From assembly GCA_004431415.1 (NCBI GenBank), contig QPMI01000396.1:49105-113104 (forward strand): a stretch of DNA of 64,000 nucleotides, in the 5' to 3' direction. Source of the stretch: Cyanophora paradoxa CCMP329. Its lineage: Eukaryota; Plantae; Glaucophyta. Shown piece by piece: positions 1,593 to 29,017 of this stretch. Made by a program: the position numbers and the translations under genes. The notes beneath the pieces are model-generated. The model saw only the letters and a list, made by a program, of their open reading frames with translations, was not told where the DNA came from and did not search any database. Each line of letters opens with the position of its first letter. The first letter of the stretch is position 1.

Positions 1593-4500
1593 GCATTGCA
1601 TCGGCGGGCTCGACTTTCGGCTGTACAGCGCGACCATCTTTGTACGCATCAGAACTACATATATCGCGCCAATTTCAAAGTTCCAATGACCGCACCTGTG
1701 CTGTGACGCCGCGGGCTCTTCTCTGATAGGCGCATCCCATCTGCGGCTCCAGCATTGCTGCCGCCTATTACGCCTGGCACCCCGCCCGAGCCTGCCGCAG
1801 AGCCGAACCGAGGTTGTCAGTCGCATCGTTCTAGCGGGGCTGCGCGCATGCACCTGCTATGTCGCCTTGGTCGCTCGAACCTGGTCCTGGGCCAATCGTG
1901 ACGTCACACCGCGAGCCATCGGAGGTCAGTTCCTTCACTCCGGCTGATCCACTATCGCTGCCGCCGGGTGTACATGCGCCCCCGTCCAAGCCTGCCGCCA
2001 ACCCGAAGTTGTCAGTCGCTTCGTTCGAGAGGGGGTCCGGGCAGGCACCTGCGATGTCGCCTTCAGCCGGCGCGCTCGCAGTCTGACTGTCGCCTTCCGC
2101 GGGGTTATTTGCCGTCGCCGCCGCGCGCGCCGTCCCGCCCGTGTCCTTTGCACCTTCTGCCGAGTCCAGATCGATCACTGCTCGATTACAGTCAGCGTCA
2201 GGGCGCGGCGCTCGCTTAGTCTACGGTATCACCTGGAGCTCCGTCGCCTTCGGCATCGCCTGAAAGCGCCGGCGCCTCGCTCGTCGTCTTTCTCGACTCC
2301 ATTGTCTCGTCGGCCGAGTCCAGATCAATCACTGCTCCAGTCCGGTCAACGCCAGCACGCTGCGCTTCCGTGGCACTCTCACCTGATTGAGCCGCTAGCG
2401 CTCCTGCCGTACTGTTCCCTTCCATGTCCCTTTCGGCCGCGCCACCGCCCTCGTCGTCTTGTGCGAGCCTCTCGGTACGATCGTCGCCGGCGTGCGGCGA
2501 ACCACACTCTCGCTCCATGTGCACCTAGTGCTGCGGCTGTCAGCTGGTTCCCTGTGGTGATGCTGTGCACGTGCACCCGACGCTCTGGTCTTCAGCTTCC
2601 TTACCTGCTCGCACCTGGCGTCTTACGCGCTTATTCCAACGTGTACCCCTTCGACCAGCCGTCCTGGACGGCTGCTCCCTTAGCTTCATTATAAGCTCAT
2701 ACTCGGAAGCCCGACGTCGACGGGCGGCGGCTGGGCTCCTGGTGCGACACGGGGATTGATCAGGCGGCTGAGGTCCGGATCGCTGGGCGCAGTTACCGTA
2801 GTACGTATACGGGCGGAGACCCGCCAGACGCGTACGTATACGTACACCGGATCCTGAGTACTAGTGGATCGCCGCGCCGGCGCTGCGGCCGGCGCCGGGC
2901 CGCACCTCCGACCCGGGCCGGGCCGGCGGCGGGCCGCGCCCGGCCTGCGGCAATAAGCAAGGCATGAGGAGGACCTGCAAACCCTCCGAATTACCTGCAG
3001 CTGATCGATGTAACATAGCTAGCTACCAATATTAATAGTGCTCTAGATCTCGCCGGGCCTATAGCTAGGCATCCGGATCCGGATCCGGGCCGCGGCCGGT
3101 ACTTTTTTTTGCAAAAGTGGACGTCGCATTGATACACCACGGCACATGTATCAATGTTCTACGTGACGTGCCCTTCCGACCGGTCAACTATCTAGCCGAA
3201 GGTGCTAGCTAGGTGCCGGCCATGGGTCGCGGGCCGCGGCCGGTACGAGGTCCCCCGGCAGCGGGCGCGCGAGGGTAGGAGGTGGAGCTCGAGCGGGCGC
3301 TAAATCTAGTACTAGTACTGATACTTGTTGCGCGTTCATGCAAACAATCCGAATTACCTGCAGCTGATCGATGCAGCACAGCTATATAGCTAGCTACCAA
3401 TATTAATAGCGCTCTTCACGATATTAATTCTGATGATATATACGAAATATTTCAAAATTACGGGCGCCGGCTACTATAGGTATTAAATATTTGAATTCTG
3501 CGTGAAAATTATATATGTTGTCCGGATATCGATCTATCCTTCTGGCATTTTAAACATTTCCGTGCCGGCGGAGACCTGATACAGACCAGAGGCTGCACTG
3601 CCCCGGGGCAGGAATGTTTATTGAGCAAGAAAGTTCACCCCTGCTCGAGTCTCGATCGGCTGAAAAAACTCGCAGGAGCCTGTTTTCCCGGCGTCCGGTA
3701 CAACAGGTACTTGAGGCGGCCTAGCGGACCACCCTGTGCCCCTCCGGTCTCGGCATGTTTGACATGAATTGTCGGGCGTATCGGGCGCATTTAGGCGCAC
3801 TCGGTCCGGCAGATATACCGCCACTTGGTGAGGCGCTAGATTGCATTTTTCGAAAATGTGTTCTTGTCTATTCAATGATTCCTGGTCCACCGGATAGGAC
3901 TCGGATCTTCCTGTACACGTTTCCGGACTCCTAGGGACATGCATATGCCTTGCTAGGATCCGGCGAGAAAACCCGGGTTTTGAGAGGTCGGGACATTTCA
4001 TTTTGGCCTAGGGTGGGCACCCGAACACCCCCAAGTGGGGGAAGGGGAAGGGGTCCTTCCCCAAATAAGTGCCGCCGGAGATTTGTGATTGCTTTAATTT
4101 GTTGTCCTTAATATCACTACCTACGCCGTGCACGTGACGGGGGGTTCGCCACACCGTACTAGTAGTCTCTCAAAAAAGACAAAAAAAGAGATTTCATGTT
4201 TTACAGTAGCCGAAGTACTAGTCTGACGGTACCAAATCCTTTTTTCTAACCAAGCTCATTGATATTCATTTGCATTAACTTATATAATTAGATGCAAATT
4301 TAATCATGAGAATCAATTATCGATCGAGCTAGTTAAATCGATCGGTTTAATCGATCGGTTTAATTGACGTACGATTAATTTAATTCGGTACGTGCGAATT
4401 CGAAGTTCTACGAACGTATATATATATATATATATATAAACGTGCGAAAAAGAGTTTATTTTATAATTATAATGGCCGCCGTATTAGGCTACTAGTAGCC

Positions 4501-6976: not shown

Positions 6977-7240
6977 CGTCCTGCTTCGCCTCCGCCTCCA
7001 CGTCGTCTTGTTGTTCCTCTTACTTGTCTGCTTCCTGTTATTTATCTTTCTCAATTTTGTCCTCCGCTTCTTAGTGATGTAATTCCTTCCGATATTGATG
7101 GTATTTCTAGCTCTGGCTCTTCTTCGTGTCAGTCATCCTCTGTCCCTAGATCTGCTCGATTTATCGTCTATTCTCGAAGTCGATCTGTCTCGAGCTCTCA
7201 GTCTGTGTCTTTTCTTTTTTATTGTCGATTTTGGCTCTTT
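6977..7240 (+). repeat. Direct repeat copy 1 (~260 bp) of the host sequence into which the PLV inserted
   Basis: CGTCCTGCTTCGCCTCCGCCTCC...TTGTCGATTTTGGCTCTTT recurs at 29407-29658 with a few substitutions and indels. Confidence 0.9.
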
Positions 7241-7509
7241 TTGGATCTCTCGATCGACCCTGGACTCTCCGCCTGCCACTGTCTGCGGGGTACCTCCGCC
7301 ACCGTGTTCGGCGCCGGCTGTCAGTACTTTGCTCGGTAGCTCCCCCGTCGTGGCTCCTCGGGGGCCTCTTCGTCGTCGTCGTTCGCTGGGTTCCGGCTCC
7401 GGGTCAGATTTCTCGCCGGGCTTACCTTCTAGATCTCCTGGCTCTGCTCCTGGGCCCTCAGCTCCGGGACCGGCTTCCCCGATCTCCTCCCGGACTCGTG
7501 GTCGTACCC

Positions 7510-7515
7510 GTCGCC
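7510..7515 (+). repeat. Target-site duplication GTCGCC, left copy
   Basis: Identical hexamer directly abuts both element ends; 6 bp is typical of Polinton rve integrases. Confidence 0.92.
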
Positions 7516-8075
7516 TGTTGTATACGCATGGACCTCACACCCGGGCAATTCCGCTTCGCTCCATAGCCCCCGATTCCATGCGTTTCAAGTGTATACCTCC
7601 AGCGTTTCATTAGTTATTTCACCATATACGTCTACCCCACCGATCCAGCTACGTCTACTATCCGATTCCCTAGGTCGAAGCCTAGCAATATCTGACGACT
7701 ATACAAGGCAGAGGAGACAACAAGAATAGGCGAAGAGGAGCGCTGCCCCCATGAGCGCGGTCTGCAGAGCAACGTGGCAGAATAGTCTAGACGATATTAA
7801 TGTGTACAATGAAGCTATCAGAGGAAACACGTTTAGGTTAATTTTAGGCGATAATGAAGTGTACATCGAAGCTAACAGAGGAAGCACGTTTAGGTTAATT
7901 TTAGGCGATATAGATGAGTACGATGAAGCTAACAGAGGAAGCACGTTTAGGTTAATTTTAGGCGAAATGATGAGAACATTGAAGCAACCAGAGGAAAAGC
8001 GTTTAGCTCTATCTAGGCGATAATGATGAGTACATTGAAGCACTTCGTGTCCCAAGAGCGCTCTGGTGCGGCCTC
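7516..8075 (+). repeat. Left terminal inverted repeat (560 bp)
   Basis: Starts TGTTGTATACGCATGG and ends ...GGTGCGGCCTC; reverse complement of 28452-29011 with no mismatch seen by eye. Confidence 0.96.
7811..8040 (+). repeat. About four ~57-bp tandem repeats inside the TIR (mirrored at ~28487-28716)
   Basis: Unit GAAGCTAACAGAGGAAGCACGTTTAGGTTAATTTTAGGCGA...; three close copies and one diverged copy. Confidence 0.9.
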
Positions 8076-8081
8076 ATCCAC

Positions 8082-8414
8082 TTAATCTGGCTGCTTTTCC
8101 GAAACTGGAGTCTTCTCCTTTCTGAAACTTGATAGCAAGGACTTTCTTCTTTTCATTGGCTTCGGGATATCTGGGGGTGGCCACGACAATCTTCGGCCTT
8201 CATCAAGCCAAGGTACAGGTGAATCAGTTCGAGTAAATGGAGAATTGGACCTAGAAGTCCTGGGTGTGTTAATAGGCGATACCTGAGTTTCTGGGGTGCG
8301 AGAGCCCTCAGTGTCCGATATTTCGAGATTAATGGTCGTCTCACAGCAACTACAATTCAATTTGCTGGTGACGTTGAGATGGAACATATCCATACATTTT
8401 CGAAGCAAATCCAT
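8082..8414 (-). CDS. PLV hypothetical protein (110 aa)
   Basis: ATG-initiated ORF, last gene of the minus-strand cassette, ends just inside of the TIR boundary; CSCC motif and basic C-terminus. Confidence 0.6.
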   Translation of the reverse strand: MDLLRKCMDMFHLNVTSKLNCSCCETTINLEISDTEGSRTPETQVSPINTPRTSRSNSPFTRTDSPVPWLDEGRRLSWPPPDIPKPMKRRKSLLSSFRKEKTPVSEKQPD

Positions 8415-8452
8415 CTATTAATGGAAAAATATAAAAAAACAAAGGAATGCGG

Positions 8453-9283
8453 CTATGGAGCCGTATCGCTGCCGAATATAGGAAAATACCTGTTTGTACC
8501 AACATATTCTGCATATGTGTTCTGTTTAGCAATAGCATCGGTTCTTTCAGCATAAAGGATGCATTTGTAGATACCAAACCTGGTTGCTCTCACCAAGAAC
8601 TGGTAGTCTTCAAGGCCGAAATTTACACCATGATAAGCGATCCCGAAATTATCATAAGGAGTTATTACCACCGTAATATTGGGTGTCCCACCTTCAACCT
8701 GGCAGAGAGCGTAGATATCAGGCGGGATGTCAACGACGACCTTATAATGATCACCAATTTCAACCAGAGAATCAACTACTGATGTTTGCTCATTAACAAC
8801 AATGGGGAAAATCTTGATAATATATGGTGCATTCATGCTGGGAACGTAGGTGCGAATACGCGTTAAATTATCAATCGGGTTTGGTTGATCGTTCACAAAG
8901 AGAGGTGCTCCGATAGCTCCACCAACACGAAGACCATCACCAATATATGCGCCGCCATTTCGACAGTTAATAGCTCCAGAACGAGATTCAAAAGAATAAG
9001 TCGAAATAGGATCGCCGTAGCTGTCTGGATCTCCATAATGTGAGCTGAAATTTGCATTCGTAACTAGCAGCTTTGTAGTTTTGACCACGCCATTATTTTT
9101 ATCGCATCTGAGTTCCTGCAATCTCAGTTTATGGGTGGACCCAAAGGTGTTCATCGTAGGCTGAACTTCTGTTGATTCAAGACCTTCTACATCATCAAAA
9201 GTAGCATGCTGCAGAACGTGATTTGCTGGTGCAGATAGTGAGAGCTGTGCCGTAACAATACGCTCTATTGGAATTTCAGCCAT
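8453..9283 (-). CDS. PLV fibre-like protein, paralogue 4 (non-C1q C-terminus)
   Basis: Shared N-terminal block ELRCDKNNGVVKTTKLLVTNAN...GGAYIGDG; C-terminus ends with ...ILYAERTD. Confidence 0.75.
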   Translation of the reverse strand: MAEIPIERIVTAQLSLSAPANHVLQHATFDDVEGLESTEVQPTMNTFGSTHKLRLQELRCDKNNGVVKTTKLLVTNANFSSHYGDPDSYGDPISTYSFESRSGAINCRNGGAYIGDGLRVGGAIGAPLFVNDQPNPIDNLTRIRTYVPSMNAPYIIKIFPIVVNEQTSVVDSLVEIGDHYKVVVDIPPDIYALCQVEGGTPNITVVITPYDNFGIAYHGVNFGLEDYQFLVRATRFGIYKCILYAERTDAIAKQNTYAEYVGTNRYFPIFGSDTAP

Positions 9284-9306
9284 TTTACATTTAAGTAATA
9301 TATAAT

Positions 9307-10161
9307 TTAAGGTGTTGGATCGTCAATAACATCTGGCTCCTGGTAAAATCCGGTTGTAAAGATATCAGCAATATTCACACCACGAAGTGCCGAAACAGCT
9401 GCTATATCTGTTCTCAGTCCCATAATCATAGTATTGTAAACTCCTACCTCAGTGACAAACAAATCATAAGTAAATGTCAAATTGTTATATACACAATATC
9501 CCCGACCGAAATGATTTGATGCTTGAACAAAGAATAGGTAATTGTGACCTGGTTGATTGTTGTTTGCTCTGCACATCGAAAGCATTGCTGTGGGAAGAGG
9601 AATATTCCTTCTCACACGATCAGTTCCTGTAATGGAAACCAACTCTGAATTTTCAAGAGAGACAGATGATGCAACATAGAAGTGAAGAAAAGGTTGCTGT
9701 GCAACAGGTGTATAGAACCGAATTCGTTGTGGATTTTCAACATTTTGTTCAAGGGTATCCGGGACATCATTGTATGCAATCGAAGAAGAGAGTTGACCGG
9801 ACACACGACAACCACCACCAATAAATGCTCCACCTGAACGAATTGTAGCAGCAGCAGAATTCTTGTCGAAATCGAGGGCTTTCAGATCAACACTGTATGC
9901 ATCAGGACCTCCATTTATTGGTTGGAAGAAGTTAGCATTGCTTACGAGTAGTCGAGTTGTTTTAACCACACCTGAGTTCTTGTCAGCTCGAAGTTCTTTA
10001 ACTCGAATCATCGAATTTTTGTCAAAAGAGTTACCATTCGAATTAGGTCTTTCTGTGGATTCTAGACCGCGAACCTCATCATTAACTTCATGCTGGCGAA
10101 AATGCATTGCAGGTGATCCAAGGGAATAGATAGGTAGCTGAACCCGATTATATTCGCCCAT
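9307..10161 (-). CDS. PLV fibre-like protein, paralogue 3 (non-C1q C-terminus)
   Basis: ELRADKNSGVVKTTRLLVSNAN...GGAFIGGG; C-terminus resembles that of 8453..9283 (FG-x-Y...GVY...RTD); start set at ATG 10161. Confidence 0.75.
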   Translation of the reverse strand: MGEYNRVQLPIYSLGSPAMHFRQHEVNDEVRGLESTERPNSNGNSFDKNSMIRVKELRADKNSGVVKTTRLLVSNANFFQPINGGPDAYSVDLKALDFDKNSAAATIRSGGAFIGGGCRVSGQLSSSIAYNDVPDTLEQNVENPQRIRFYTPVAQQPFLHFYVASSVSLENSELVSITGTDRVRRNIPLPTAMLSMCRANNNQPGHNYLFFVQASNHFGRGYCVYNNLTFTYDLFVTEVGVYNTMIMGLRTDIAAVSALRGVNIADIFTTGFYQEPDVIDDPTP

Positions 10162-10199
10162 TGCTTGTTTTACTAAGAAGGAAAGAAAAATAATGTTCA

Positions 10200-10463
10200 C
10201 TACTCTTCTGTGACATTGTTATACTCAATGCCTTTCTTTACAGTTCCCCTTTGGAATGCCTGTGACACAATTGCTTCCTTTGAGGTTGGTATTTGAACTC
10301 CTGCCGAAATGCAAGATTGAATTTCTTTCTGAACAATCTCATCAATTGCAATTCTTGCCCTGTTGTGAACCACATTATCAATCCAATCCTGAACAGAAGC
10401 AGCACAGTATTCCATTCCCAACTTCTCAATATCAGATAGAACGACTTGGTATATATTTGACAT
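10200..10463 (-). CDS. Small helical protein resembling phage tail-fibre-associated hypothetical proteins
   Basis: 87 aa with QDWIDNVVHNRARIAIDEIV, recalled from aquatic phage proteins next to fibre genes; no search run. Confidence 0.7.
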   Translation of the reverse strand: MSNIYQVVLSDIEKLGMEYCAASVQDWIDNVVHNRARIAIDEIVQKEIQSCISAGVQIPTSKEAIVSQAFQRGTVKKGIEYNNVTEE

Positions 10464-10484
10464 CTCTACTTAATAGAGAGAAAA

Positions 10485-11504
10485 TTATGTGATACTTAGA
10501 AGTTCACCTGTGAAAAGTGTTCTACTTGAATAACTACCTGTGGAACCTGTGACAAGTGTTACATACTCACCAGCAGGAACATTGATAATTGCACTGAGAG
10601 TAAGAGGTTTGGTTGTGATAGTGGAATTAGCTTCTACTGAAATGTTAACTCCATTGGGTAAAAGATTATTTTTCAGAAAACTAAGACTTATTGCAGCACT
10701 TGTTGTTGAATTGGTATATGCTGTAAATCTATAATCACCTGCAACAGGAGCTGTAAACCTTCCATTAGTAACATCGAATGACCCTGTATTATTTATCAAA
10801 ACGGTTGTCCAATTGATCAGAGCGGCTGCACTTGTAGCAACATGAGTATATCCAAGTTGAACAGAAAATCGTGGCTGAGAAACATATTTTAAATAGCTTG
10901 AATTCAGAGTCAAACGATTGGCTTCCAGTGTTGCAAAAAGATCACTGTTACGTTTTAACAGCAGATTAACATCTGCTCCTGTATCTATTTCAGGAGTGAC
11001 CACCTTGGTTGATGCTGTTATTATTGATTCTGTGGAATTGGGAATACTAATTCCAGCATTTGCTGTTACCAATCCTGTAAATGTGCTTGTTCCTGTTATG
11101 CTTACTTGATTGGCTGTAAGGGTTCCATCAATCCTTGCCCCATCTCCAATATAAGCGCCTCCACTTCTTACTACAAGAGCTGAGTTATTGATGGTGTTGT
11201 CAAAGGTAACAATCTTTGGTGTGGTGAACCCTCCCACATCATCATAAATTGCTGAATCTGATACAATCTGACCTGATTGAACTTGGTTCTTGTTTGAGAC
11301 TATTAGACCTGTGGTTCTCACCTTGCCTGCATTTCGATCACATCGAATTTCTTTGCATCTGATCACAGAATGTTGAGAGAATGAATCGGCTCCTGTGGTC
11401 TCTGTGCAAATGAAACCTGGGGTAGCATCTGTTACTGTATGGTTGAGTTGATGCAATTTCGGCGCTGCATAACAGAAAACAGGAACAGCTATTTGTGTAG
11501 ACAT
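10485..11504 (-). CDS. PLV fibre-like protein, paralogue 2, C-terminal C1q-like domain
   Basis: EIRCDRNAGKVRTTGLIVSNKN...GGAYIGDG; C1q signature NNTGSFDVTNGRFTAPVAGDYRF...FTGELL. Confidence 0.85.
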   Translation of the reverse strand: MSTQIAVPVFCYAAPKLHQLNHTVTDATPGFICTETTGADSFSQHSVIRCKEIRCDRNAGKVRTTGLIVSNKNQVQSGQIVSDSAIYDDVGGFTTPKIVTFDNTINNSALVVRSGGAYIGDGARIDGTLTANQVSITGTSTFTGLVTANAGISIPNSTESIITASTKVVTPEIDTGADVNLLLKRNSDLFATLEANRLTLNSSYLKYVSQPRFSVQLGYTHVATSAAALINWTTVLINNTGSFDVTNGRFTAPVAGDYRFTAYTNSTTSAAISLSFLKNNLLPNGVNISVEANSTITTKPLTLSAIINVPAGEYVTLVTGSTGSYSSRTLFTGELLSIT

Positions 11505-11526
11505 TCTTTATATTATACAAACAAAA

Positions 11527-12591
11527 TTATATAGCACTTACCAGGTAAACCAACAAGATGTGATTGCTTGGAAAGTCAATACTACCTAACATACAGTAAA
11601 TTTGAAGACTGTCTCCCATGGTGAGGGTAATAAGAGCTTCGTAGCACATCTGATTCCTGCTTGATTGACTTGCATATGAAAGAATCTGATTTGTATTGTT
11701 TCCGTTTATTCTTAGTCCAATCTGGGTCAAGGAGGCAGTTGCAGTATTGTCTTCCGTAATTGTAAAATAGACCCTATAAACTCCTGAAACAGGGGCTGTA
11801 AATGTTGCTGGATACAGTTTGTCAAAATGACCCTCATTATTCACAAGATATGTTCCAACTGGAAAAGGAAGTGTTGGGGTGCCGGAACTAACACTTGTTC
11901 CAAAAATCTGAGCGTTTGCTTGTTGTCCTGAAATACACATTCTTGGGCAATAGCTGCGTTTAAGACCACTGTTTGTTGGAAATGTGATTGCTTTCAGATC
12001 TGTTATTGTCTTTTCGAGAGTGAAAATGATATCTCCGTTTCGTTTATAATTCACATTTGCATCTGTCCCATTATCCATCTCAGGTGCATTAACTCTTGTA
12101 GTAGCTATTCGAGTAACATAGTTAACATCTCCTGAGAGACCACCATTAAAGGTCATCAAACCTGTGAATGAACTTGTCCCATTCACATTCAATTGATTTG
12201 CTGTAACAGTTCCTGCTACATTTGTCCCATCTCCAATGTAGGCACCACCACTCTTCACCACAAGAGCAGAAGTATTGCTTGTGTTACCAAAAGTAATTAT
12301 CTGTGCTGTGGTGAATCCACCCACATTATTATACACTGCTGAATCGGGAACTACTTGTCCTGCTTGAACTTGATTTTTATTCGAGATAATAATTCCTGTG
12401 GTTCTTATCTTGCCTCCATTTCGATCACATCGAATCTCTTTGACTCTGAGTATATTATTCTCTGTGAAAGACGTATTGCTTGAAGCTTCAGTGCATATAT
12501 TCCCGGGTGTAGAGTCGACTACTTCATGAGAGGTGCTGTGTAGTGATTTCGCGGCAAGTTCATAGTTTGGGATTTCTAAAAGGGAGGTCAT
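11527..12591 (-). CDS. PLV fibre-like protein, paralogue 1, C-terminal C1q-like domain
   Basis: EIRCDRNGGKIRTTGIIISNKN...GGAYIGDG; NNEGHFD...FTAPVSGVYRVYF...LTMGDSLQIY; start set at ATG 12591. Confidence 0.85.
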   Translation of the reverse strand: MTSLLEIPNYELAAKSLHSTSHEVVDSTPGNICTEASSNTSFTENNILRVKEIRCDRNGGKIRTTGIIISNKNQVQAGQVVPDSAVYNNVGGFTTAQIITFGNTSNTSALVVKSGGAYIGDGTNVAGTVTANQLNVNGTSSFTGLMTFNGGLSGDVNYVTRIATTRVNAPEMDNGTDANVNYKRNGDIIFTLEKTITDLKAITFPTNSGLKRSYCPRMCISGQQANAQIFGTSVSSGTPTLPFPVGTYLVNNEGHFDKLYPATFTAPVSGVYRVYFTITEDNTATASLTQIGLRINGNNTNQILSYASQSSRNQMCYEALITLTMGDSLQIYCMLGSIDFPSNHILLVYLVSAI

Positions 12592-12610
12592 CTTTATAAT
12601 TACGAAATAG

Positions 12611-15600
12611 TTAAATTGCGACAGCAATGTAATGGATTGTTACAGTAATGCCTGGTCTGTCAAAAGAACTTAATGGAACTATTTCGAGCTCACACGTGAA
12701 ATAGCTACTGTAAACTTGTTTAAGCCTAACATACATGCGGTAGTAGTAGGCTGTCTCATTGTGTTGTATACCGGTTGTTACAATAGGAGGGTTAGCAAAG
12801 CTGGTGTTGAAATAAATAGTGAGATTAAACCTATGGTCAGGGTTTGCCCATAGATAAGGAGTAGTGTAAGCATACGTCCCTGCTTGAAGCTTTCCATTAA
12901 AATATGCATTGAATTGACTGGAAAGATCTGCCTCTGTAATACATCGACTGATGGTCGCATTATTTGAGGGGTTCATAGCATAGAAATTTCTTGCATAGGC
13001 ATTTCCACGAACAAGTAAGGTTTTATCAAAGTAATTCTGCGAATTGTGGAAGAACCATGTTTCTTCAAACATAGGTCCTGCTGGTTCTACAATCTGACCT
13101 GATCCTACATACATTGTGTTGTTGGCTCTGATGGTGTTGGCTGTAAAGGGATCAAGAGTTGGTCTATTGGTCAGGTCATTGTAGTTGCCCGAAAATAAAG
13201 CGGGTTTGTTATAGATATCTGTATTCCAATCATGAGTATGTGCAAAATCTGTAATATCTGCTTTGACATGAGTATGTGCAAAATCTGTAATCTCACTCTT
13301 TACATGGGTGTGTGCAAAATCTGTTATCTCTGATTTAACATGAGTGTGGGCGAAATCTGTTATCTGTGACTTTGTGTGAGTGTGTGCAAAATCTGTGATC
13401 TCAGATTTAAAATGAGTATGGGCGAAATTTGTAATATCTGCTCTGGTGTGGGTGTGAGCAAAATCTGTTATCTGTGCTTTTGTGTGAGTGTGTGCGAAAT
13501 CTGTGATCTCTGCTTTTGTGTGGGTATGTGCCCTGTTATTCAGATCAAGGAAGCTTCCCGAGAATGCTACTGGGTGCAGATTTGCAGCAGTAGGTTTGTT
13601 TAGAAGATCATTATAGTCTCCTGTGAAAGAGATGGTTTTCAGTTCACCCCTTCCTACATAATCAGAAGGTAGGTCAATCTTAATGGGCATAATAGCTGGA
13701 TCAATAGGAATCTCGTACTCAGCTCCTGGGTGAACCACAGGAAAGGTTTGATCACTTTCAGTGTGAACAAAAAAGTTGTCAGCAGTCACTGTTCCATCAA
13801 TAGTCCCTCCTGTCAAGGGCAGGTAATTCCCAGTCACAGCTAGACCTGCAATAACTAAAGCGAGCTCTGTTTGATCTACATAGTTTTGTGCTTGAAGGTA
13901 ATCCTCTGTGACCACTCTGGATATAGTGTCATTGTGAATGTTTTTTGCTGCTGCCCTTTGATTGATTTCTAAAAGTCCCTCCCCAACTCCACCATTATAG
14001 TTTGTTTTGATCCAAGATATTTCACATCTCTTGTAATCATCTCTAATTCCTATGAGAGCATTAGGTAACAATCTTTCTCGAGTGAATATTAATTTCGGTC
14101 TTGATGAATCTAAATCACTCACATCAGTAACATTAATTTGAATTGCTGCATCTTTATCATCATAGTTTGCTGGATCAGATGGAAGCGATAATATTAAACT
14201 ATCTGTCATTGGGATGTCATCAGCATAGTAACTGGTTAAATAGATACCTGGTTTGGTGTCCATCAACCCGAAGTTTCCGCCTGCTGCGATTATCTGCATC
14301 CGTGTAGGAGGTCTGATGAATAGCTCACCCTCCATTGTGGTTCCTGCATCAATTCCTTTACGATTCAGGTAAAATTCACTTAATCGTAATCTTTCTTCGA
14401 TGTTAATATTTGGTAGAGACTCACACCATTTATCCCATCATTCATAACATTACCTGCTGATGCAAAAGTAGGCTGTAAATCGATTTCGTCCCAATTATGC
14501 CTATGGTCTTCCGGCGGAAACTCAGGTGGAATTCCATCAATATCGCCCCAATCATGCCTGTGATCTTCAGGTGGATATTTCTCAGGTTTACCTAAGATCT
14601 CATCCCAGTCATGGTTGTGATCCTCTGGTGGATATCTCGCTGGTTTGTTGTTGATTTGTTCCCAGTCAAGGTACATCTCGAAAATCTCAGGTTGTAAACC
14701 ATCTGGCAATAATTCCTCATGGTGTTCATAAGGCTGCGCGTACTCAACAGCAGGAGGCTCGAGACCATCTGCTAAATATTCCTCATGGGTTCATAATTCT
14801 GTTCATACTCATACTCTTGTGGATCTAAACCGTCGGGTAAATACTCTTCCTCATTTGGGTCGTATTGATCATACTCATACTCTTGCGGGTCGAAACCGTC
14901 AGGTAAAAACTCTTCCTCATCTGGGACAAATTGGTAATCATCAAGCTCTAATATATCGATTTCAGGAGGTAAATACTGTTCATCTATTTGTTTTTTCGGT
15001 TCGAAGATAGGTTTATTGCGAACTTGCTCCCAACTGACAATATGTTGACCGAAAGGAACTGTCTCATCAGCAACTCGCTCTCGACCAGGTCCATCCGGGA
15101 TTGGCGGCTTTGGTAACCCTGGAAGAGGTGGTATAGGGACAATAGGTCCGAAGTAGTAGTTGAAAATGTTGATAACCTGCTCTTCGGTGCTAACCTTCTT
15201 ACCATCCTGATAAATATTAGTTCCATGAATATTTCTCCACTGCCTGGTGCGAAGCCCTAGGTCATATCTATCATGCAATGCTGGGAGCAGGTGCCTGTCA
15301 GCCTCAATCAAGATAGAGCCGAAGGTGCATCCAGGAATATCGAACCTGGTGGCTGGCTCGGTATCGATTTGATTTACATCAAACCCGAAAAGAAGATTTG
15401 CTTCTCGTGCATCGGTATATAGTAAATCCCAGGGGAACGGCTGAATTTGTGATGCAAGCACTGATATTGCAGCATCTTCGCCAAGGAGAATTCGCCCAGT
15501 GATGTGAGCTGCAGTTTTGTTTGCGACATCATTTGATTCATCAATTAGACGTAGAGCTGATGTGTGGACCCCTCTATCATTTTGTAGCCTAAATATCAAT

Positions 15601-15914
15601 CTACCGGAATCATACTTGGAGACTGTGCCTGAGGAGGCAATGCGAAGGTGTCGTGGCAACGCCCTGGACCCAATAATTTCAGCAACAAAGTTCTCAGTGG
15701 GACCAAGACAGAATCTCTGTGCAATATCCGGGGCACCAACGTGGGAGTTCCGCAGAATTAATGCAGCTGGTCGACTAAACTCGGTCCTGTGGATGTCACG
15801 ATCAGCATTGAAGTCTGCCAAGATGCTTCCGAAAACGCGAATATTTATGAGTCGATCATCAACGAAATCTGGAGATCTACGAAGTGGCACTGGCTTCTTC
15901 AAGATGTAGGACAT
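12611..15914 (-). CDS. Long fibre/tail-like protein (~1100 aa), split into three ORFs by two apparent frameshifts (~14788, ~14435)
   Basis: Acidic PDG(L/F)DPQEYEY repeats continue across the first frameshift; H(N/R)HDW repeats; YLPLTGGT; eight AHTHxK(S/A)xITDF-type phage-tail repeats; (T/S)G(D/N)YNDL-x-N(K/R)P motifs; C-terminus resembles H-type lectin/gp53-like domain (FNTSFANPPIV...IHYIAVA). Confidence 0.8.
13229..13530 (-). repeat. 36-bp coding tandem repeat (AHTHxKxxITDF, 8 full copies plus a partial)
   Basis: Directly visible in the DNA and in the translation of ORF 12611..14335. Confidence 0.9.
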
Positions 15915-15936
15915 TTTATATAAGCCCCTTTTAAAA

Positions 15937-17421
15937 ATGAAGGTCATTCTCTCACTATCAGGTGGAGGTGCTCGTGGCATAGTCATTGCCCGAATTCTAC
16001 AGCGGATTGAGGCGATTACTGGGAAAGCAATACCACAGCTGTTTGATTTCTTTGCAGGCACCTCAACAGGGGCGATAATAGCGGCCGGTTTGGCTATTCC
16101 ATCAACTCCAGGCTCTGTTCTCGCTTACCGATATTCTGCAGGTGATATCTTGAGTCTATATCAAACGAACCTGCCAACAATATTTGCAAATCCAAGATCA
16201 CTGACAAGCTTGCTCTCAGGCAGCCGCTATGATGCAAACCCTCTGGAGTCGGTGCTCACAGACGTTGCCCAGGACTACACAATTGCAGAATCGACAAAAG
16301 ATGTATTAATAACAGCGTTTGATACAGTTCGGATGCAGCCCGTAGTTTTTACGAAGGATGGGCCATATTCAAGCACGCTGATTCGTGATGCAGTGAGAGC
16401 ATCTTCTGCAGCGCCTACATTCTTTCCACCGAAGGTTCTAGGGGACAAAAACCTTGTTGACGGGGCAATTGCCTGTTTGAATAATCCCTCAGTTGCTGCA
16501 CTCAGCCACGCCAGTAAAATTTACGATGCAGAAGATCCAATTGTTCTTGTGAGCATTAGCTGTGGTGAAGTCCAAGCCAGTGAGCAATTGACTGCAGGCT
16601 TTTCGAATTCGGAGACGTCAGGCTGGGGCGCCCTGGGCTGGATCCTATCCCTCTCAGGCAGCCCAATCATTTCTATGCTAATGGCTGGTAGCGAGCTGGA
16701 ATCGCACTTCCAAATGCAGGAACTGCTTCCAGTTGATGCGGATAGGAATCTAACAAGATACTGGCGTTTAAGTGTTCCGCTGCCAGCTGCAGTCATGAGC
16801 AAGCTTGATGATGCCTCCCCATCGAATATTTCTTATTTGATTTCCACAACAGATTTATGGCTGAAACAAATCGAAATAAATGCTAAAATAAATGCACTCT
16901 GCAGCTTTCTACTGGCAAACTATGACCTACTGAACGATGAGAGACTAATCATATCGTCTACTTTAACAGTTGAGCCGCCATTTGATGTCAACTGGTTTAT
17001 AATTCCAGATGCAAACATCATAAGCAACGACTTTGAGGAATTGCACCCACCTTCTCATGTGCGACCCAACTCAACAGGGTTCCAAGGTGGCACTCTACCT
17101 AATCCCTGGATCAGAGTCGAATTTCCAAAGCCTTTTGAGCTACATCAAATCATTATGTATGGGCCAGCCTTTGCTGCCGGAGTCCTATTTAATTTCAGCA
17201 TTCTGACCAACTTAGGATATGTCCAAGATGGGAGGCTTTTTGAAAATACGGTCCTAGCAAATGTGCTTGCTGCAAACCCATCTATGACAGGCTTCGATCT
17301 AATGCATAGTGACTCGCATTTGTTCACCCCACAGGTATATAACTATGTGCAAATTATAACAAACGAATTTATAAATGTGAATGCATTCCGGCTTGATTTC
17401 CGGGGACGTTACATTAATTAG
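15937..17421 (+). CDS. Patatin-like phospholipase with C-terminal beta-rich extension
   Basis: GGGARG oxyanion motif, GTSTG nucleophile elbow, ASSAAPTFFPP, DGA catalytic Asp; extra ~160-aa tail with PWIRVEFPKPFELHQIIMYG (discoidin/galactose-binding-like). Confidence 0.93.
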   Translation: MKVILSLSGGGARGIVIARILQRIEAITGKAIPQLFDFFAGTSTGAIIAAGLAIPSTPGSVLAYRYSAGDILSLYQTNLPTIFANPRSLTSLLSGSRYDANPLESVLTDVAQDYTIAESTKDVLITAFDTVRMQPVVFTKDGPYSSTLIRDAVRASSAAPTFFPPKVLGDKNLVDGAIACLNNPSVAALSHASKIYDAEDPIVLVSISCGEVQASEQLTAGFSNSETSGWGALGWILSLSGSPIISMLMAGSELESHFQMQELLPVDADRNLTRYWRLSVPLPAAVMSKLDDASPSNISYLISTTDLWLKQIEINAKINALCSFLLANYDLLNDERLIISSTLTVEPPFDVNWFIIPDANIISNDFEELHPPSHVRPNSTGFQGGTLPNPWIRVEFPKPFELHQIIMYGPAFAAGVLFNFSILTNLGYVQDGRLFENTVLANVLAANPSMTGFDLMHSDSHLFTPQVYNYVQIITNEFINVNAFRLDFRGRYIN

Positions 17422-17682
17422 GCGGCGGCATGAATGCCCAGGAAATCAGAGAGAGTCCAAGACGTGTTGGAATAGTTCTGCCAGATTTATCTTTCTCCCA
17501 AAATGGTGCTCCATTACGCCCTCCCAGTCGCCTCTTAATGTAATTCTCTCTTCGCTGATACCAAGTTTGGGCGCCGCCGAGGCTGTGCGGAGCCAAGAAG
17601 GCGAAAGCCAAGATGGGCATTCTTGCCCTTCGGGCTCCTTGCCTTCGGCTTGTCTGCGACCCTTCGGCTTGTCTGCGACTTT

Positions 17683-18602
17683 TCAAATCAGTTTGAACTG
17701 GAGCTCCCCAGACCATGGCAATCCATTCAGTAATACATCATCACCATCTCTGTCTACAATGCGCAGTCGCAAGGAAGTCAGCACAAGACGCTCTTCGATG
17801 GGGATCCATTCGCTTTGATGATCCTGATTTATATAAACGAATTTGCCAACGTCCTGACTCATTTGAATTCGAGCAAGCCCGTAGTTGCACATTGTTTTGG
17901 CCCCACGGCGAAGCTTTGAAGCAAATGGTCGAAGCTCTTCACAGACTAGGAATAGATACTGGTCGCTGTTCATGTCAATTATCTTTGGAAATTCGACAGC
18001 ATAACCAAGTGGCTCACTCCGCATTCTTTCGGTGAAATCCACGCCATATTCAGGGTGTGAAGGTGTTACTGGAATGCCAGCAACCTCGAGATATCGCTCA
18101 GCTGCAGTTACTGATCTTTGTCCTCCTTCAAACACGATAGGAGACAGCTGGAGGGGCTCATTTCGGTTCAGCCCTAGCAGATTCGATAGAGCTTTGAACT
18201 GGCAGGTTACTGTGCAGGAACGGTTGCAATAGGCAGACATCTTCAGTGTCTCTGGGTCCCGAAACAATTTGAAATATGCTATTACGATTCCCCCAGTTCA
18301 AACTTAAACGATAGGCCAAAGTTGTAAAGATCTGTTTCGCCCATATTTGCAGTAGTAATTATACCAGGCTCAAAAACTGCCAGATTTTCCGTCCAAATGT
18401 TGGGGAAGGTGATCGAAAGATACTCATCTCTAATGCTCGTGTAAAGGCTGTTTGCGAACTCACACTGGGTAAGTCGAACAGCAACTGGATTGATTATAGG
18501 TTCATTTATTTCTAGCACAAAGTTTGCCTCTGAATCGATTGGCCTTCTGTCTCTACTGTCAAAGCTGAGCCTGGCGCAGCGTCGATGCTTGTCTTCGACC
18601 AT
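17683..18602 (-). CDS. Minor capsid (penton-like) protein A, one apparent frameshift at ~18292
   Basis: N-terminal FDSRDR...F-x-L...VAVRL...EFANSLY and C-terminal LRLRIVDRDGDDVLLNGLPWSGELQF, typical of PLV/Polinton single-jelly-roll mCP; frames join if G5 is read as G6. Confidence 0.8.
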
Positions 18603-18629
18603 TTTTATTCTCTAACTGATATAAAAAAG

Positions 18630-19585
18630 ATGCCGACGGACTACGTCTGCATTGCAAGCCACCAAGCGGATGAGCTGACATCCACCTCAAAATTTAAAGT
18701 AAGACTGCCTAAAGTTTATCAGGATGTAAAAGCCGTGCGCCTGGTATCTGCTGAGATCCCCAACACAATGAGCACAGTTGATGCACTCGATCCAGCAGAG
18801 GATTTAGTGTTTGACACGTATATATATTGGTGCAAATATGATCCTGCAAATGAGGGACCAGACCCACATCAGCCAGGTTTTGGAGCCTGGAATAACATTA
18901 CAATTCCACCTGGAAATTACGACGTCACCTCGCTTGTGACAAAGATAAACGAAAGGTTGACGGGGACTGGTATCACGTGCACGTATAATTCAGCAGTTAA
19001 ATCAATAGGGTTCACAGCTAGCTTCGAGTTCTTTATTGCTCTGATGTTGGCACCGAACCTGGGTGGCGGGAAATCAGAAACTACCAGGCTGTTGCTAGGG
19101 CTCAGCGAACTGCAAAGCTGCTAGGCTTGCGATCAATTCTACCGATTCGGTCTAAGGCTTTAACTGTCGATATTCAATATATAGAAGGCGCTTATGAACC
19201 CGATGTCACTCCCGATGATCATGTGCTACTTCGCATTCCTGAAATTGGTGACCTTGTCAGTATGCCCAATACTTCAATTCCTGGCTTTTTCTCAAAGCTC
19301 AGCATTCCCAGCGCCCTCCGTCCAGGCGAAACAGCCTACTATGATTCAACTGAAGCAACTCCTTTGTATAAGTATGTTTATTCAAAGCTGGACCTGTACT
19401 CTGTGACTATTGAGATATACGATTTTATGCAGCGAATCGCTGATTTAAATGGAGCTCCTGTGTCATTTATTCTCGAAATTCGTTATGGTCCTGACGAACC
19501 CAATGGTGATGTTGTTTACGAACTTGCAAAACTTCAGCTCCAGAAAAGGTCAAAGACATATCCTTGGATCAATTCGTCAAACTGA
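18630..19585 (+). CDS. Minor capsid (penton-like) protein B, one apparent frameshift at ~19033
   Basis: FKVRLP...VKAVRLVSAEIPNT, ITIPPGNY, AKLLG, VLLRIPEI, VTIEIYD...DLNGAPVSFILEI; frames join with one extra T. Confidence 0.85.
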
Positions 19586-19687
19586 GCTAAGCTCGCGGCA
19601 CGCAAGCGAAGTCGCAGACAAGCAGCTCGGCTGCGCCCCTTGGCGAAGCGGCAGAATTATTTTCTTTCACTGCAATTATATAATTCG

Positions 19688-21076
19688 ATGGATGTCACTC
19701 AAAATTTGCAGCGGCTCGGCCTCAAAGAGCTCCTGACAACTCCGCAGGAAGCGAAGGACTTCTTTATGAACAATGAGCTTATGTTGGGTCTAACGAGCCA
19801 AACCAAGCCTGTTCGTGTTGTTGTCAACCCAAGCAATGACTATGGAGACTGCTTCGGTAAACGAGTCACCTACTTCCTTCCCAGATACAACTTCCTTCAG
19901 GGGCTCGAACTCCAGTTTACCCTTCCCGAGCTGACAGCTTTTACTGGTGACACTGACCTGGTTCGCACTGGTTATTTGCGATCGGTTGGTGCTCTCGTAA
20001 AGCGAATCGAAATCAAATATGCTTCCTACAGCTACATTGTCCCCGAGGACTGGCTTGTTCACAGCGCTCTGATTTTCAATGATGATGCTCAGCTCAAAAA
20101 GAAATACCGGTCAGGTGGCTGGCTACATGGAACACCACCGCAGGGGACAAATCGCACTGGAGGTATTTTCAGTGTAAAAATCCCCTGTCCCTGGGAGGGT
20201 TCTGTGCTTCCGATTGGTGCTCTATCTGGCGAGGTTTCCGTCGAGGTTTGGTTCCGTGATCGTGCCCAGGGCTTCGTCGAAACCAGCTATGGTGGTAGGT
20301 TTGTAACAGAATATGCCATAGGCGGTGATGCTTCTAAAGAAGATGGCCTTGGTAGTGTTGGAGCCGCTGCTGCTTCCCCTGCAAACATCGGCCAGAATAT
20401 AACTCCCAATGTTCTCAGTGTCACCCCTGCCAATCCGGAGCTTTCGAATCCAAAGATTATTGCTCATTGCATCAACGTTGATGAGGCCACTTTTGCCCAG
20501 GTGATTGAGAAAGTCAAAACGTCTGGAATCGCAATTCCCGCTACCGATGTCGGCTGGGTTGATGCTGATTCAATTACTTATGCTGGTGCTGGTGCGCCCA
20601 CCCGAATTAATCTGTCTCAAATCAGTGGACTTTGTTACGGCCTATTCGTTAGCATTCGCAAGCAGCCAAACATGAACCAAACTGATGGAAAACACAGTGT
20701 CCTCAAAACCGAGGCTAATGCTCGCGATATTACTATTTCCTGCGAATTGAATGGACAGCGGCTTTATTCAAATGAGCCTGTTCCTCTATTGCAAGGTGCT
20801 GAACTCATCGCTGATGTCTTCAAGTGCTCCAATCTCGACGCACCCCTTAATCGGTATGTTCTGACTGGATTGCCATTTTGCATTAGTGGGGATAAATCGA
20901 TTCGAAATGCTGCTCAAACTGGTTTCGTAGATCTGACGAACTCCAGCAGCTGCTTCCTGAATATCATGAACCCTGCTGCGTATGATGCTAACAACAAGAT
21001 TTACGTCCAAATTCGCGCTCTCCTTCACACTGTCCTAATTGTTGATGCTGCGGGACTGCGGAAAGTTAATCTCTAG
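19688..21076 (+). CDS. Major capsid protein (double jelly-roll)
   Basis: ~460 aa; N-terminal FGKRVTYFLPRYNFLQGLELQFTLPEL matches the DJR-MCP pattern; LPIGAL..EVSVEVWF; lies between mCP and ATPase. Confidence 0.85.
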   Translation: MDVTQNLQRLGLKELLTTPQEAKDFFMNNELMLGLTSQTKPVRVVVNPSNDYGDCFGKRVTYFLPRYNFLQGLELQFTLPELTAFTGDTDLVRTGYLRSVGALVKRIEIKYASYSYIVPEDWLVHSALIFNDDAQLKKKYRSGGWLHGTPPQGTNRTGGIFSVKIPCPWEGSVLPIGALSGEVSVEVWFRDRAQGFVETSYGGRFVTEYAIGGDASKEDGLGSVGAAAASPANIGQNITPNVLSVTPANPELSNPKIIAHCINVDEATFAQVIEKVKTSGIAIPATDVGWVDADSITYAGAGAPTRINLSQISGLCYGLFVSIRKQPNMNQTDGKHSVLKTEANARDITISCELNGQRLYSNEPVPLLQGAELIADVFKCSNLDAPLNRYVLTGLPFCISGDKSIRNAAQTGFVDLTNSSSCFLNIMNPAAYDANNKIYVQIRALLHTVLIVDAAGLRKVNL

Positions 21077-21214
21077 TCACAGTGTCGCCAGACAAGCTGA
21101 CTCGCCTGCGGTCGCGGTTGTGTTTGCCTGCGAATATCAATAGTTGGGCGCAGCCGAGGCAGTGCGGAGCCAAGAAGGCTCCTTGCCTTCGGCTTGTCTG
21201 ACGACTATTTTTTG

Positions 21215-21961
21215 ATGGATGAGTCTCAAGAGCTCGCAAAGTTCCAGCCTAGCGATATGAGGGTCCCTTTTAAAGCCCTGTTTATATCGAAATCTAATAG
21301 TGGCAAATCGTTCTATTGCACAAAGCATCTGCTTCGACTGCTATATCCAAAGATTAATCGAGTGGTTGTGTTTACGGCCACCAAATTCAATGGTGAATAC
21401 GAAGCAATAACAAAAGAGCTTTACGATGATTTTCAACCTGCCATTGTTGCAGAAATCATTGATTCACAGCGCGCTCTAATCGAAAACAAAAAGAAAGCGC
21501 CGCAGATATTACTTGTATTGGACGATCTTGTTGCTGCATCTGAAACTGTTGATCTTCGAAACAGCAAGGTTGTTAATCGACTTTTTATGCAGTGCCGCCA
21601 TTTTTGCATTTCTACGATTTTAATGTCGCAAAAACTAACAGCTCTTAGTCAATCGATTCGTTCTAATGCTGATTATTGTTTTTTCTTTAGCTATTCTAAT
21701 CACACAGAGCTTGAGGCTATCTATCGAGAGTTTAGTCATCTCCCGAAAGACGAATTTATTGCTTTGTTCCAAACTTGGGCTCACGATTATCAGTGCCTAG
21801 TCCTTGATGGGACCAAATACGATACGGCCTGGTTCGTTGACAAGGCAGTTGAAGATAAGAGTTTTCGTTTTACGAAGTGGGTTAAGAATGAACCTGAAGA
21901 ACGTAAGAAAGAAGAATCACCTGTTATCTCTAAAAAGAAGCATTTTAAAATCTTAGCTTAA
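21215..21961 (+). CDS. A32/FtsK-HerA-family genome packaging ATPase
   Basis: Walker A variant SKSNSGKS, Walker B LLVLDD, RH motif, SQ, IRSNADY. Confidence 0.92.
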   Translation: MDESQELAKFQPSDMRVPFKALFISKSNSGKSFYCTKHLLRLLYPKINRVVVFTATKFNGEYEAITKELYDDFQPAIVAEIIDSQRALIENKKKAPQILLVLDDLVAASETVDLRNSKVVNRLFMQCRHFCISTILMSQKLTALSQSIRSNADYCFFFSYSNHTELEAIYREFSHLPKDEFIALFQTWAHDYQCLVLDGTKYDTAWFVDKAVEDKSFRFTKWVKNEPEERKKEESPVISKKKHFKILA

Positions 21962-23242: not shown

Positions 23243-23521
23243 CTAATCGAAATCAGGCAAATCTGTTAGATCCTCCACAGTAGGTCTTCTTTGCTGTTTT
23301 GCTCGATCAATCCTTTCCTGAACTACCGCTGGTTCTTCTAATTGACATATCTCAAAAGCGCGCTGCAATTCACGTTTGTCATACTCTCGCAGATGCGGCA
23401 AAGACAATAACCATTCAGCATATTTTGGGTCGCTAAAAACTACTTTAAGATGAGTTTCACCTTTATATTTTCCAAATCGAATTGTTCCTGCGGCGCAGCG
23501 ACGCTGCTTGTCTGCGGGCAT
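23243..23521 (-). CDS. Small protein with FGKYKG...Y-x-x-WL domain (DUF3820/ExoX C-terminal-like)
   Basis: IRFGKYKGETHLKVVFSDPKYAEWLL; start uncertain, ATG 23521 chosen. Confidence 0.7.
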   Translation of the reverse strand: MPADKQRRCAAGTIRFGKYKGETHLKVVFSDPKYAEWLLSLPHLREYDKRELQRAFEICQLEEPAVVQERIDRAKQQRRPTVEDLTDLPDFD

Positions 23522-23906: not shown

Positions 23907-25028
23907 CTAGCCTTCTGGTCTTTGTTCTCTCTAATATTCCACCAGGGTTTAACTTGACAGTTCCAGCTGTCGCAAGTTGCTTTTGAAGGCGAAGCAGCTT
24001 CTTATTTTTTTCTATGTCCACTCGATCTAAATTCTCTCGCATCAGATTTAGCTCCTTCTTTCTGCGCTGCTGTGACCGCTGTGCTGCATTTCCCGCACGA
24101 CGTTCCTCTGAATCTACTGGGACCTTTAAAAGTTGCTGGTAGGTCACTGGTGTATCCGATCCAGCGAGTTTAAATCTTAGAAGGGGTCCAAAACCCCAAT
24201 CGACTCAATTCGAAATACTTCTTTCGAGAAGGTTGGCTTTGTCGATTTATCGAAGGTTCTCCTGGTTAGCTTAACTCGAACTAGGTCTCCTACTTTAAAT
24301 TCGACCTCCTTCAGGTAGTGTTGCTGCTCGTAGATCTCTCGCTGATAATCGTTGCGCGCGATTGTCTCCTTCGGATTCTCTGCTGCAGCGTTTGGCGATG
24401 TACCAATCGACCTATGCTCTGACGAATTATAATTGCGCAAGAAAGCGGGCAGCTTGTCGATGTACCTATCCGTGTCATATGCCTCCATATACCGTGCAAT
24501 AACTCGCTTCAAAGTTCCATTAAATCTTTCTATTTTGCCGTTTGCTTGTGGTCGATGCGCTTCCACAGCATTGTGCTTAATTCCCTCAGCTTCTAACAAA
24601 CTACCAGCTGAAGCTTTAAACTCCTGATCTGTCTGAATAATATCCGGCTTGGCTGGAAAACTATCTATGAGTTTCCGTAGTGTTGAAAGGAGTGTACTTT
24701 CGCTCTTGTTCTTCATTGGAATGCTGTAGGCTTTCCGAGTCACTACGTCCACTGCGTTCATTATAAAGTGAATACCGCGGTTTGTTCTAGCGTACGGAGT
24801 CACGTCGATTAGGTCCACCTCGTAGTATTTCTCTGCTTTGTCGTATGTTATACTTGTGAATGGTTTCTCTTTTTGCGGCCTCGCAAATCTTTGCGCTGTC
24901 GATAATTTCTCCAGCACTTCTCTAACCCTGGAAACTGGTATTTTCAACTTCTTGGCAATACGTGTGGCAGACTGAAGCCCTATTTCTGGATCATAGTATG
25001 CCTCCTGAATTTTGGCTGATGTACTCAT
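23893..25028 (-). CDS. Retroviral-type (rve, DDE) integrase, one apparent frameshift at ~24195
   Basis: YYDP, VDLID, QTDQEF, GKIERFNGTLK, YNSSEHRSIGTSP, FKVGDLVRV; C-terminus continues RFKL...YQQLLKV after adding one G. Confidence 0.93.
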
Positions 25029-29011: not shown

Positions 29012-29017
29012 GTCGCC
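29012..29017 (+). repeat. Target-site duplication GTCGCC, right copy
   Basis: Follows ...ACAACA immediately. Confidence 0.92.

Follow-up and report, generated by a model that had tools for sequence, protein, structure and literature searches.

This report concerns a row of viral fibre-like genes in a 64,000-nucleotide (nt) stretch of the Cyanophora paradoxa CCMP329 assembly (contig QPMI01000396.1), called the window below. Four intact open reading frames (ORFs), F1 to F4, lie on the minus strand within positions 8453-12591. They share an N-terminal domain of about 125 residues, here called the anchor, which closes at the motif GGA(Y/F)IG(D/G)G. Beyond this motif the proteins diverge into two types of head. 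The row is part of an inserted element that resembles a polinton-like virus (PLV) or virophage.

An initial annotation, made from the sequence alone, had described four co-oriented ORFs with two shared motifs. ORF listing, alignment and BLASTP all agree with this: both E(L/I)R(C/A)D(K/R)N.G(V/K)(V/I)(K/R)TT and GGA(Y/F)IG(D/G)G are present in each of the four. The same annotation presented the genes as a tandem set of four. The row is interrupted by a small ORF, s87, between F2 and F3, and it continues upstream with two more fibre-like genes that do not carry the anchor. The F2 gene itself also stands, with a start that is more likely the ATG at 10161 than the GTG at 10200. Coordinates are given in Table 1.

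Table 1 Features of the window, with the fibre-like genes first (aa, amino acids; bp, base pairs).
Feature	Position	Strand	Remarks
F1	8453-9283	-	276 aa; anchor ~8903-9283, head type A ~8456-8905
F2	9307-10161	-	284 aa from ATG at 10161; anchor, diverged head type A
s87	10200-10463	-	87 aa; between F2 and F3, directly downstream of F3
F3	10485-11504	-	339 aa; anchor ~11100-11504, G/T/S/N-rich shaft, C1q head residues 213-335 (~10500-10868)
F4	11527-12591	-	354 aa; anchor ~12187-12591, shaft, Pfam C1q residues 246-328 (~11608-11856)
574-aa fibre-like protein	12611-14335	-	about ten 12-residue repeats, H-type-lectin-like C-terminal end
511-aa fibre-like gene	14380-15914	-	read through with X; split by a 1-nt frameshift near 14786
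PLV/virophage-like element	7516-29011		21,496 bp; from inverted repeats, GC, Pfam, junctions, unoccupied-site contigs
Terminal inverted repeats	7516-8075 and 28452-29011		560 nt each, identical
Target-site duplication GTCGCC	7510-7515 and 29012-29017		6 bp; sequence at both junctions
Candidate double-jelly-roll major capsid protein	19640-21076	+	lead only; 478-aa ORF adjoining the ATPase
A32-type packaging ATPase	21194-21961	+	Pfam Pox_A32 E 1e-8, 35.4 bits
rve-family integrase	24177-25052	-	Pfam rve_3 E 2.2e-8, rve E 2.1e-7
pPolB (protein-primed DNA polymerase)	25464-27274	-	Pfam DNA_pol_B_2 E 3.5e-38 (25997-27274), 1.4e-17 (25464-26006)

A shared domain with different heads

An alignment of F1 to F4 has 31 invariant columns, and almost all of these fall inside the first ~125 residues. 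Pairwise BLASTP gives the same picture. F1 and F3 match with an E-value of 4e-17 (43/120 residues identical), and this match is confined to the N-terminus. F1 and F2 are similar over almost their full length (E 9e-40, 86/247 identical or 35%), and the comparison of F3 with F4 has an E-value of 2e-81 (139/297 identical, 47%). When the four proteins are searched with tblastn against the whole window at E<=1e-3, exactly four copies of the anchor are returned. This means that the four are paralogues, and not chance likenesses.

Within each pair the anchor is better conserved than what follows it. For F1 and F2 identity is 46% in the anchor versus 25% in the remainder, and for F3 and F4 these numbers are 59% and 34%. 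The F3-F4 anchors have a nonsynonymous divergence (dN) of 0.31 and a synonymous divergence (dS) of 1.45, which is near saturation, for a dN/dS of ~0.2. In the remainder of these two proteins dN is 0.83.

F3 and F4 end in a C1q domain. The Pfam family C1q (PF00386) has a curated cut-off of 23.7 bits; F3 scores 35.1 bits (E 1.7e-8) and F4 26.3 bits (E 9.4e-6). F3 also matches human C1q chains in the PDB, with E-values ranging from 2e-7 (5hkj) to 5e-4. AlphaFold2, based on a 12-sequence alignment, models the F3 head with a predicted local distance difference test score (pLDDT) of 50-82. The predicted fold is the compact beta jelly-roll of the C1q globular head. A Foldseek search of the PDB with the F3 model gives 353 matches at E<=0.001. 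C1q heads rank first, with template-modelling (TM) scores of 0.74-0.81 and E-values of ~1e-8. In a library of predicted viral structures, the models nearest to F3 include collagen-C1q proteins from giant viruses and C1q-headed phage proteins, one of the latter named tail fiber receptor binding protein. The shaft between anchor and head is short; for F3, Pfam additionally reports a weak match to a bactofilin-like beta-helix, at E 0.012.

F1 and F2 have the second head in common, here called type A. Searches of Pfam, PHROG and PDB returned no match to this head in either protein. A shared G(I/V)Y motif had suggested a diverged C1q domain. This was rejected on an hhalign probability of 0.07%, and also because the motif is placed close to the C-terminus.

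The initial annotation had placed C1q-like domains at the end of two of the four proteins, and another shared domain at the end of the remaining two. Both statements survive. F3 and F4 are above the Pfam cut-off and Foldseek supports the fold for F3, while the similarity of F1 to F2 extends over 247 residues with a head unrelated to C1q. The annotation had left room for there being no C1q fold at all; the F3 head model superposes on C1q heads.

Relatives of the anchor

A profile made from the four anchors was searched against 1.84 billion cluster representatives, and found 7 proteins at E<=0.001. Two of these come from ENA assemblies, two from Logan assemblies and three from the EukProt set for Cyanophora paradoxa. 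Two of the three EukProt clusters contain 5 and 10 members. Across 11 sequences, 16 anchor residues are invariant. The profile matched zero phage proteins among the same representatives. Scans of IMG/VR with the anchor found no relative, and neither did scans of JGI metagenomes with the anchor and with an alignment of F1 and P0001, one of the proteins described below. A word-based homologue search with the anchor returned nothing, and with the 12-sequence alignment it returned only P0006 and a weak C1q match. The anchor domain is a rare family.

Outside the window the anchor occurs with several heads. P0001 combines it with head A and is a full-length relative of F1, 62% identical overall. P0022 was recovered separately, with the head A part of F1 as query, and is also a full-length F1 relative. 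The heads of these two are 66-69% identical to that of F1 (P0022 69%). P0003 and P0004 join the anchor to a C1q domain above the Pfam cut-off, and in P0005 the C1q match is below it. P0006 has the anchor and a third type of head, from no known family. From its sequence this head gave the impression of being Peptidase_G2-like, which neither BLASTP nor Pfam supports.

P0005 and P0006 are both from Cyanophora. Their anchors are identical at 115 of 129 positions (89%), and from the residue after GGANVVGGLRVNG onward the two proteins are unrelated. P0013 and P0005 share 161 of 285 residues (56%), and most of the differences are in the C1q head.

Because the anchor is better conserved within the pairs of the window, and because its relatives carry different heads, these comparisons show head exchange on a constant anchor in at least two lineages. 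The modular build proposed in the initial annotation, a constant N-terminal domain with exchangeable heads, is thus upheld by relatives that combine the same anchor with different heads. Aligning the N-termini and building a profile, as it had proposed, confirmed the shared block and recovered relatives with three types of head.

A small gene behind the C1q-headed genes

Relatives of the small gene s87 were found in IMG/VR, and two named phages carry one as well. Its core, WIDNVVHNRARIAIDEI, consists of 17 consecutive residues that are invariant in all three aligned sequences. No Pfam or PHROG family covers it.

In Limnohabitans phage DC33, an 848-aa protein that ends in C1q is encoded directly upstream of the s87 relative. 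Synechococcus phage S-SRM01 has two tandem C1q-headed genes followed by the s87 relative, which is the order F4, F3, s87 of the window. In the IMG/VR scan, the best 80 of 98 relatives correspond to 78 loci, 7 of which are too close to a contig end, so that 71 could be judged. The gene directly upstream ends in Pfam C1q at 48 of these 71 loci (46 above the cut-off), with the caveat that these loci do not count as independent events, because many of the contigs hardly differ from one another and some have two loci. A phage tail assembly chaperone is found upstream at 13/71 loci, and the upstream gene has no match at 10/71.

F3 resembles the C1q proteins of phages within the head only, and s87 relatives stand behind C1q genes. 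The C1q head with its s87-type partner thus makes up a module that is shared with bacteriophages and is joined here to an anchor of the lineage's own. Phage tail-fibre assembly genes follow fibre genes, and by analogy s87 is likely a fibre accessory or assembly factor.

The fibre-like genes without the anchor

Directly upstream of F4 lie the two larger genes of the row. All fibre-like genes together occupy ~7.5 kb of the element (8453-15914). For the 574-aa protein, Pfam gives matches under the cut-off to PTR, at 25.6 bits, and to H_lectin, at 19.9 bits; there are also PHROG matches. Its repeats have a period of 36 nt over 13196-13531, with units like FAHTHTKAEITD. The number of repeats varies among copies, since in contigs from other copies 104-288 nt of this range are either skipped or present again.

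The second gene is split into two ORFs, 14772-16061 (429 aa) and 14380-14709 (109 aa), by a frameshift in a run of GGG. Read through, its 511-aa product has C-terminal repeats that match phage tail-protein PHROGs. In three DNA sequencing runs, most short-read contigs have an extra G behind 14786 and are without the frameshift. It may therefore have arisen in assembly or be peculiar to this copy.

It was also considered that these two neighbours share the anchor. This was rejected, with an hhalign probability of 0.1%.

The integrated element

The element has a GC content of 0.44, between flanks of 0.58 and 0.69. The repeat arms were initially reported as 7508-8075 and 28452-29019. From the junction sequence, the outer 8 nt were trimmed as target duplication and flank. 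Contigs of other runs go from 7434-7515 straight to sequence that is 26/30 identical to that behind 29017. These contigs represent an unoccupied related site.

Polinton/Maverick-type and mavirus-type viruses have terminal inverted repeats (TIRs) with a target-site duplication of 5-6 bp, and a gene set of pPolB, rve integrase and packaging ATPase. All of these were found here. Judging by gene set and end structure, the element is best read as an endogenous integrated virus of the polinton/Maverick or mavirus type. The viral setting claimed in the initial annotation is in line with this. The pPolB gene is in two overlapping frames, split near 26000 (profile positions 135-333 and 335-464). An ORF upstream of it, 27310-27954, may be its N-terminus. 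Pfam also recognises a patatin-like lipase gene inside the element. IMG/VR, scanned with the A32-type ATPase, gave no relative.

The capsid gene in Table 1 is a candidate. Its neighbours in a language-model protein atlas score 0.97-0.98, and 12-30% of the members of these neighbours carry Capsid_N or Capsid_NCLDV. Two small ORFs at 18585-19585 may also encode capsid proteins. No gene for a maturation protease was recognised.

Several other observations were made on the element and its surroundings. Direct repeats at 6977-7240 and 29407-29658 (201 nt at 98% and 46 nt at 91%) lie ~270 and 390 bp outside the TIRs, and both flanks are pyrimidine-rich. The insertion seems to be into host sequence that is itself repeated. 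Each TIR holds three tandem 57-nt units (7788-7965 and 28562-28739). The element is otherwise AT-rich but has GC-rich intergenic repeats, one pair of 36 nt, direct, at 94% (17567-17602 and 21144-21179), and one of 25 nt, inverted, at 88% (19613-19637 and 23492-23516). A contig that joins 23492-23516 to 8051-8075 is present in three RNA-labelled runs at a depth of 42-57.

The 50-nt regions upstream of 15 genes of the element have an A+T content of 64-78%. In 4-5 of the 15, TATA-like words (TTATAT, TATATA, TATAAA) are present, where 0.25-0.37 would be expected. Among the genes concerned are F1, F3 and the lipase gene, and the words precede the ATG by 10-35 nt.

Other copies and transcript data

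In nineteen DNA runs under one organism label, 58-67% of the words sampled from the cassette are present. Three of these runs give 1,654-3,031 short contigs each, at 80-100% likeness. Since these contigs spread across all identity classes, the element family is multi-copy and diverged.

Summed over contigs in the three DNA runs, depth is lowest over the C1q heads, at ~400-1,400, and 5-15 times higher over the anchors of the same genes. A contig found in all three runs connects an F4-like shaft to an F3-like anchor (12159 to 11135). Depth and junctions together offer a hint of head variation between copies; it stays a hint because contig depth cannot rank the parts of a gene.

Three RNA-labelled runs with the same organism label have no cover over the fibre genes, which counts neither way. 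A run with another organism label, X20, whose RNA label is a guess, has 7 contigs of depth 2-3 that match the element at 90-100% identity, within 8347-9604, 12558-12912 and 25565-27376.

Related systems

A shared anchor with variable tips is not new; adenoviruses, phages and the zamilon virophage provide earlier examples.

The closest parallel is zamilon. According to the available part of the report on it, three of its proteins share a 52-residue N-terminal beta-prism and differ in shafts and heads, and they are proposed to be trimeric, capsid-anchored receptor-binding fibres of different lengths (10.1101/2023.01.23.525297). Here too there is a small double-stranded DNA virus of protists, with several proteins that have a conserved N-terminal domain and a variable shaft and head. 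As far as that part of the report goes, there are also differences. The domain shared here is ~125 residues long, the heads are C1q and type A, and neither collagen nor a helix bundle makes up the shafts. Unlike in zamilon, the genes here are adjacent in an element with pPolB and rve integrase, and are accompanied by a phage-type partner gene. F3 and the anchor profile matched no fibre protein in the PDB, so no sequence likeness to the zamilon fibres was detected.

Adenovirus fibres are trimeric and have an N-terminal part that binds the capsid, a shaft and a knob. Human adenovirus types 40 and 41 are among those with two fibre genes or two fibres per penton. In such paralogous fibres the attachment part is common and the knobs vary, which is the arrangement proposed here, with the role of the anchor assigned by inference. 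Adenoviruses and polintons belong to the same wide virus realm. However, the adenovirus tail is a short peptide motif and not a 125-residue domain, and the adenovirus knob does not have a C1q fold. The Pfam families for adenovirus fibres have no match in the proteins of the window. An avian case of two fibre genes or two fibres per penton is cited in the accessible text of a paper on PLVs (PMC12220804).

The same text describes modular phage-like fibre genes in PLVs, with PTR repeats, lectin and laminin domains and an S74 chaperone, and it reports a protein with PTR and H_lectin from a Cyanophora paradoxa PLV (PMC12220804). The 574-aa protein has the same architecture as this reported protein. 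For the PLV fibres in that portion of the paper, C1q goes unmentioned and no set of paralogues on one shared N-terminal domain is described.

Another study regards the C1q proteins found in marine phages as receptor-binding, and there more reads are recruited to the N-termini of these proteins than to the C1q domains (PMC3909814). The likeness to F3 and F4 consists of a C-terminal C1q head that is more variable than the N-terminus, and of an s87 relative behind the gene. Unlike F3 and F4, the phage proteins are without the anchor; the setting here is a eukaryote-type host genome and a polinton-like element.

The available text of a paper on the Cafeteria virophage mentions neither fibres nor C1q (PMC8547959). 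Full-text literature searches for C1q with polinton or with virophage brought up unrelated papers only. What is new here is the anchor family, its combination with both C1q and a second head of no known family within a single tandem row, and the C1q-s87 module shared with phages, with the proviso that the supplements of published papers may list such genes.

Interpretation

We hold it to be probable, with moderate confidence, that F1 to F4 are trimeric virion fibres of an integrated polinton-like virus, in which the common domain docks to one site on the particle and the heads bind different ligands. In each protein, the head (C1q or type A) and the G/T/S/N-rich shaft would together bring about trimerisation. 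The anchor would fix the fibre to one capsid site, either penton or capsomer. Particles could then carry mixed tips, because each anchor would fix to the same kind of site, or different particles could carry different tips. Varied tips may widen or switch attachment, to a glycan or protein on the host-cell surface or to the surface of a helper giant virus. Since both the genes of the row and the copies of the element have a conserved anchor, recombination at the boundary of anchor and shaft would exchange heads. The s87 protein would assist in the folding or assembly of the C1q fibres, in the way of the phage tail-fibre assembly proteins whose genes follow fibre genes. The initial annotation had read the row as a receptor-binding cassette. 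This reading is supported in part, by the modular build, the C1q heads and the viral setting.

A number of findings weigh against such fibres. The anchor has no match in Pfam, PHROG or PDB, known fibre tails included, so that docking to the capsid is argued by analogy. AlphaFold2 leaves the anchor of F3 unfolded, with a pLDDT below 50 over residues 1-208. The model of F1 has a mean pLDDT of 34 and is unusable; the alignments are only 11-12 sequences deep. The capsid candidate matches nothing in Pfam, PDB, phages or IMG/VR. No gene for a penton was recognised in the element. With pPolB and one fibre-like gene frameshifted, this copy may be unable to make particles. The dependence among the s87 loci, noted above, also lessens what their count can carry.

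The proteins may also be fibres whose anchor does not touch the capsid. It could dock onto another fibre protein, such as the 574-aa or 511-aa neighbour, in a branched complex like that of multi-tailspike phages, or it could be a module for trimerisation or shaft nucleation only. Two larger anchor-less genes directly upstream on the same strand fit this idea, as do the phage-type parts of the cassette (s87 and the PTR-like repeats) and the fact that no link between the anchor and a capsid protein was found. Yet the anchor bears no similarity to known phage adaptor domains, and it is present in many predicted Cyanophora proteins, as the clusters of 5 and 10 members show. In addition, the shared domain of zamilon is proposed, in the available part of that report, to sit on capsomers (10.1101/2023.01.23.525297). 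We regard this alternative as rather unlikely.

It is more improbable still that F1 to F4 are not parts of the virion at all. They would then be adhesins or decoys, produced within the infected cell or exported, that bind, for example, the particles or factories of giant viruses or molecules on the host surface. The function of the shared domain would be a different one. C1q domains are general ligand-binding modules, which would suit such a role. However, no hydrophobic N-terminal, signal-peptide-like or transmembrane stretch was found in the fibre proteins (the maximum 19-residue Kyte-Doolittle mean is 1.3). Neighbouring fibre-like genes have phage tail repeats, and a small gene of a kind associated with phage fibres stands in the same row. 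The structurally nearest viral C1q-headed proteins include the named tail-fibre receptor-binding protein. That the row consists of decaying duplicates in a dead insertion, with no present function, we consider very hard to sustain. The two frameshifted genes of this copy speak for it, but the four fibre ORFs are intact, the TIRs are identical over all of their length, and the frameshift near 14786 is absent from most short-read contigs. The invariant anchor residues are kept in the paralogues and in distant relatives, the dN/dS of the F3-F4 anchors is low, and full-length F1 relatives exist at 62-69% identity.

Building on the virion fibres favoured above, a wider and distinctly tentative proposal can be made. 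The cassette might be a library for switching tropism, in which an anchor specific to the lineage, found in a few protist-associated elements, is combined with a C1q head and s87 captured from phages. The element's numerous diverged copies within the genome would reshuffle heads through recombination at GGA.IG.G and so store alternative attachment specificities, and s87 would be a widespread, so far undescribed assembly factor of C1q fibres.

Implications

What determines the attachment of polinton-like viruses and virophages to a cell or a giant virus is largely unknown. A recognisable anchor domain provides a handle for locating the receptor-binding genes of this lineage, and it predicts the sites where heads are exchanged. 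The link between C1q fibres and s87 joins the attachment modules of phages with those of protist viruses. For phage genomes, the s87 family is also a simple marker of C1q receptor-binding genes.

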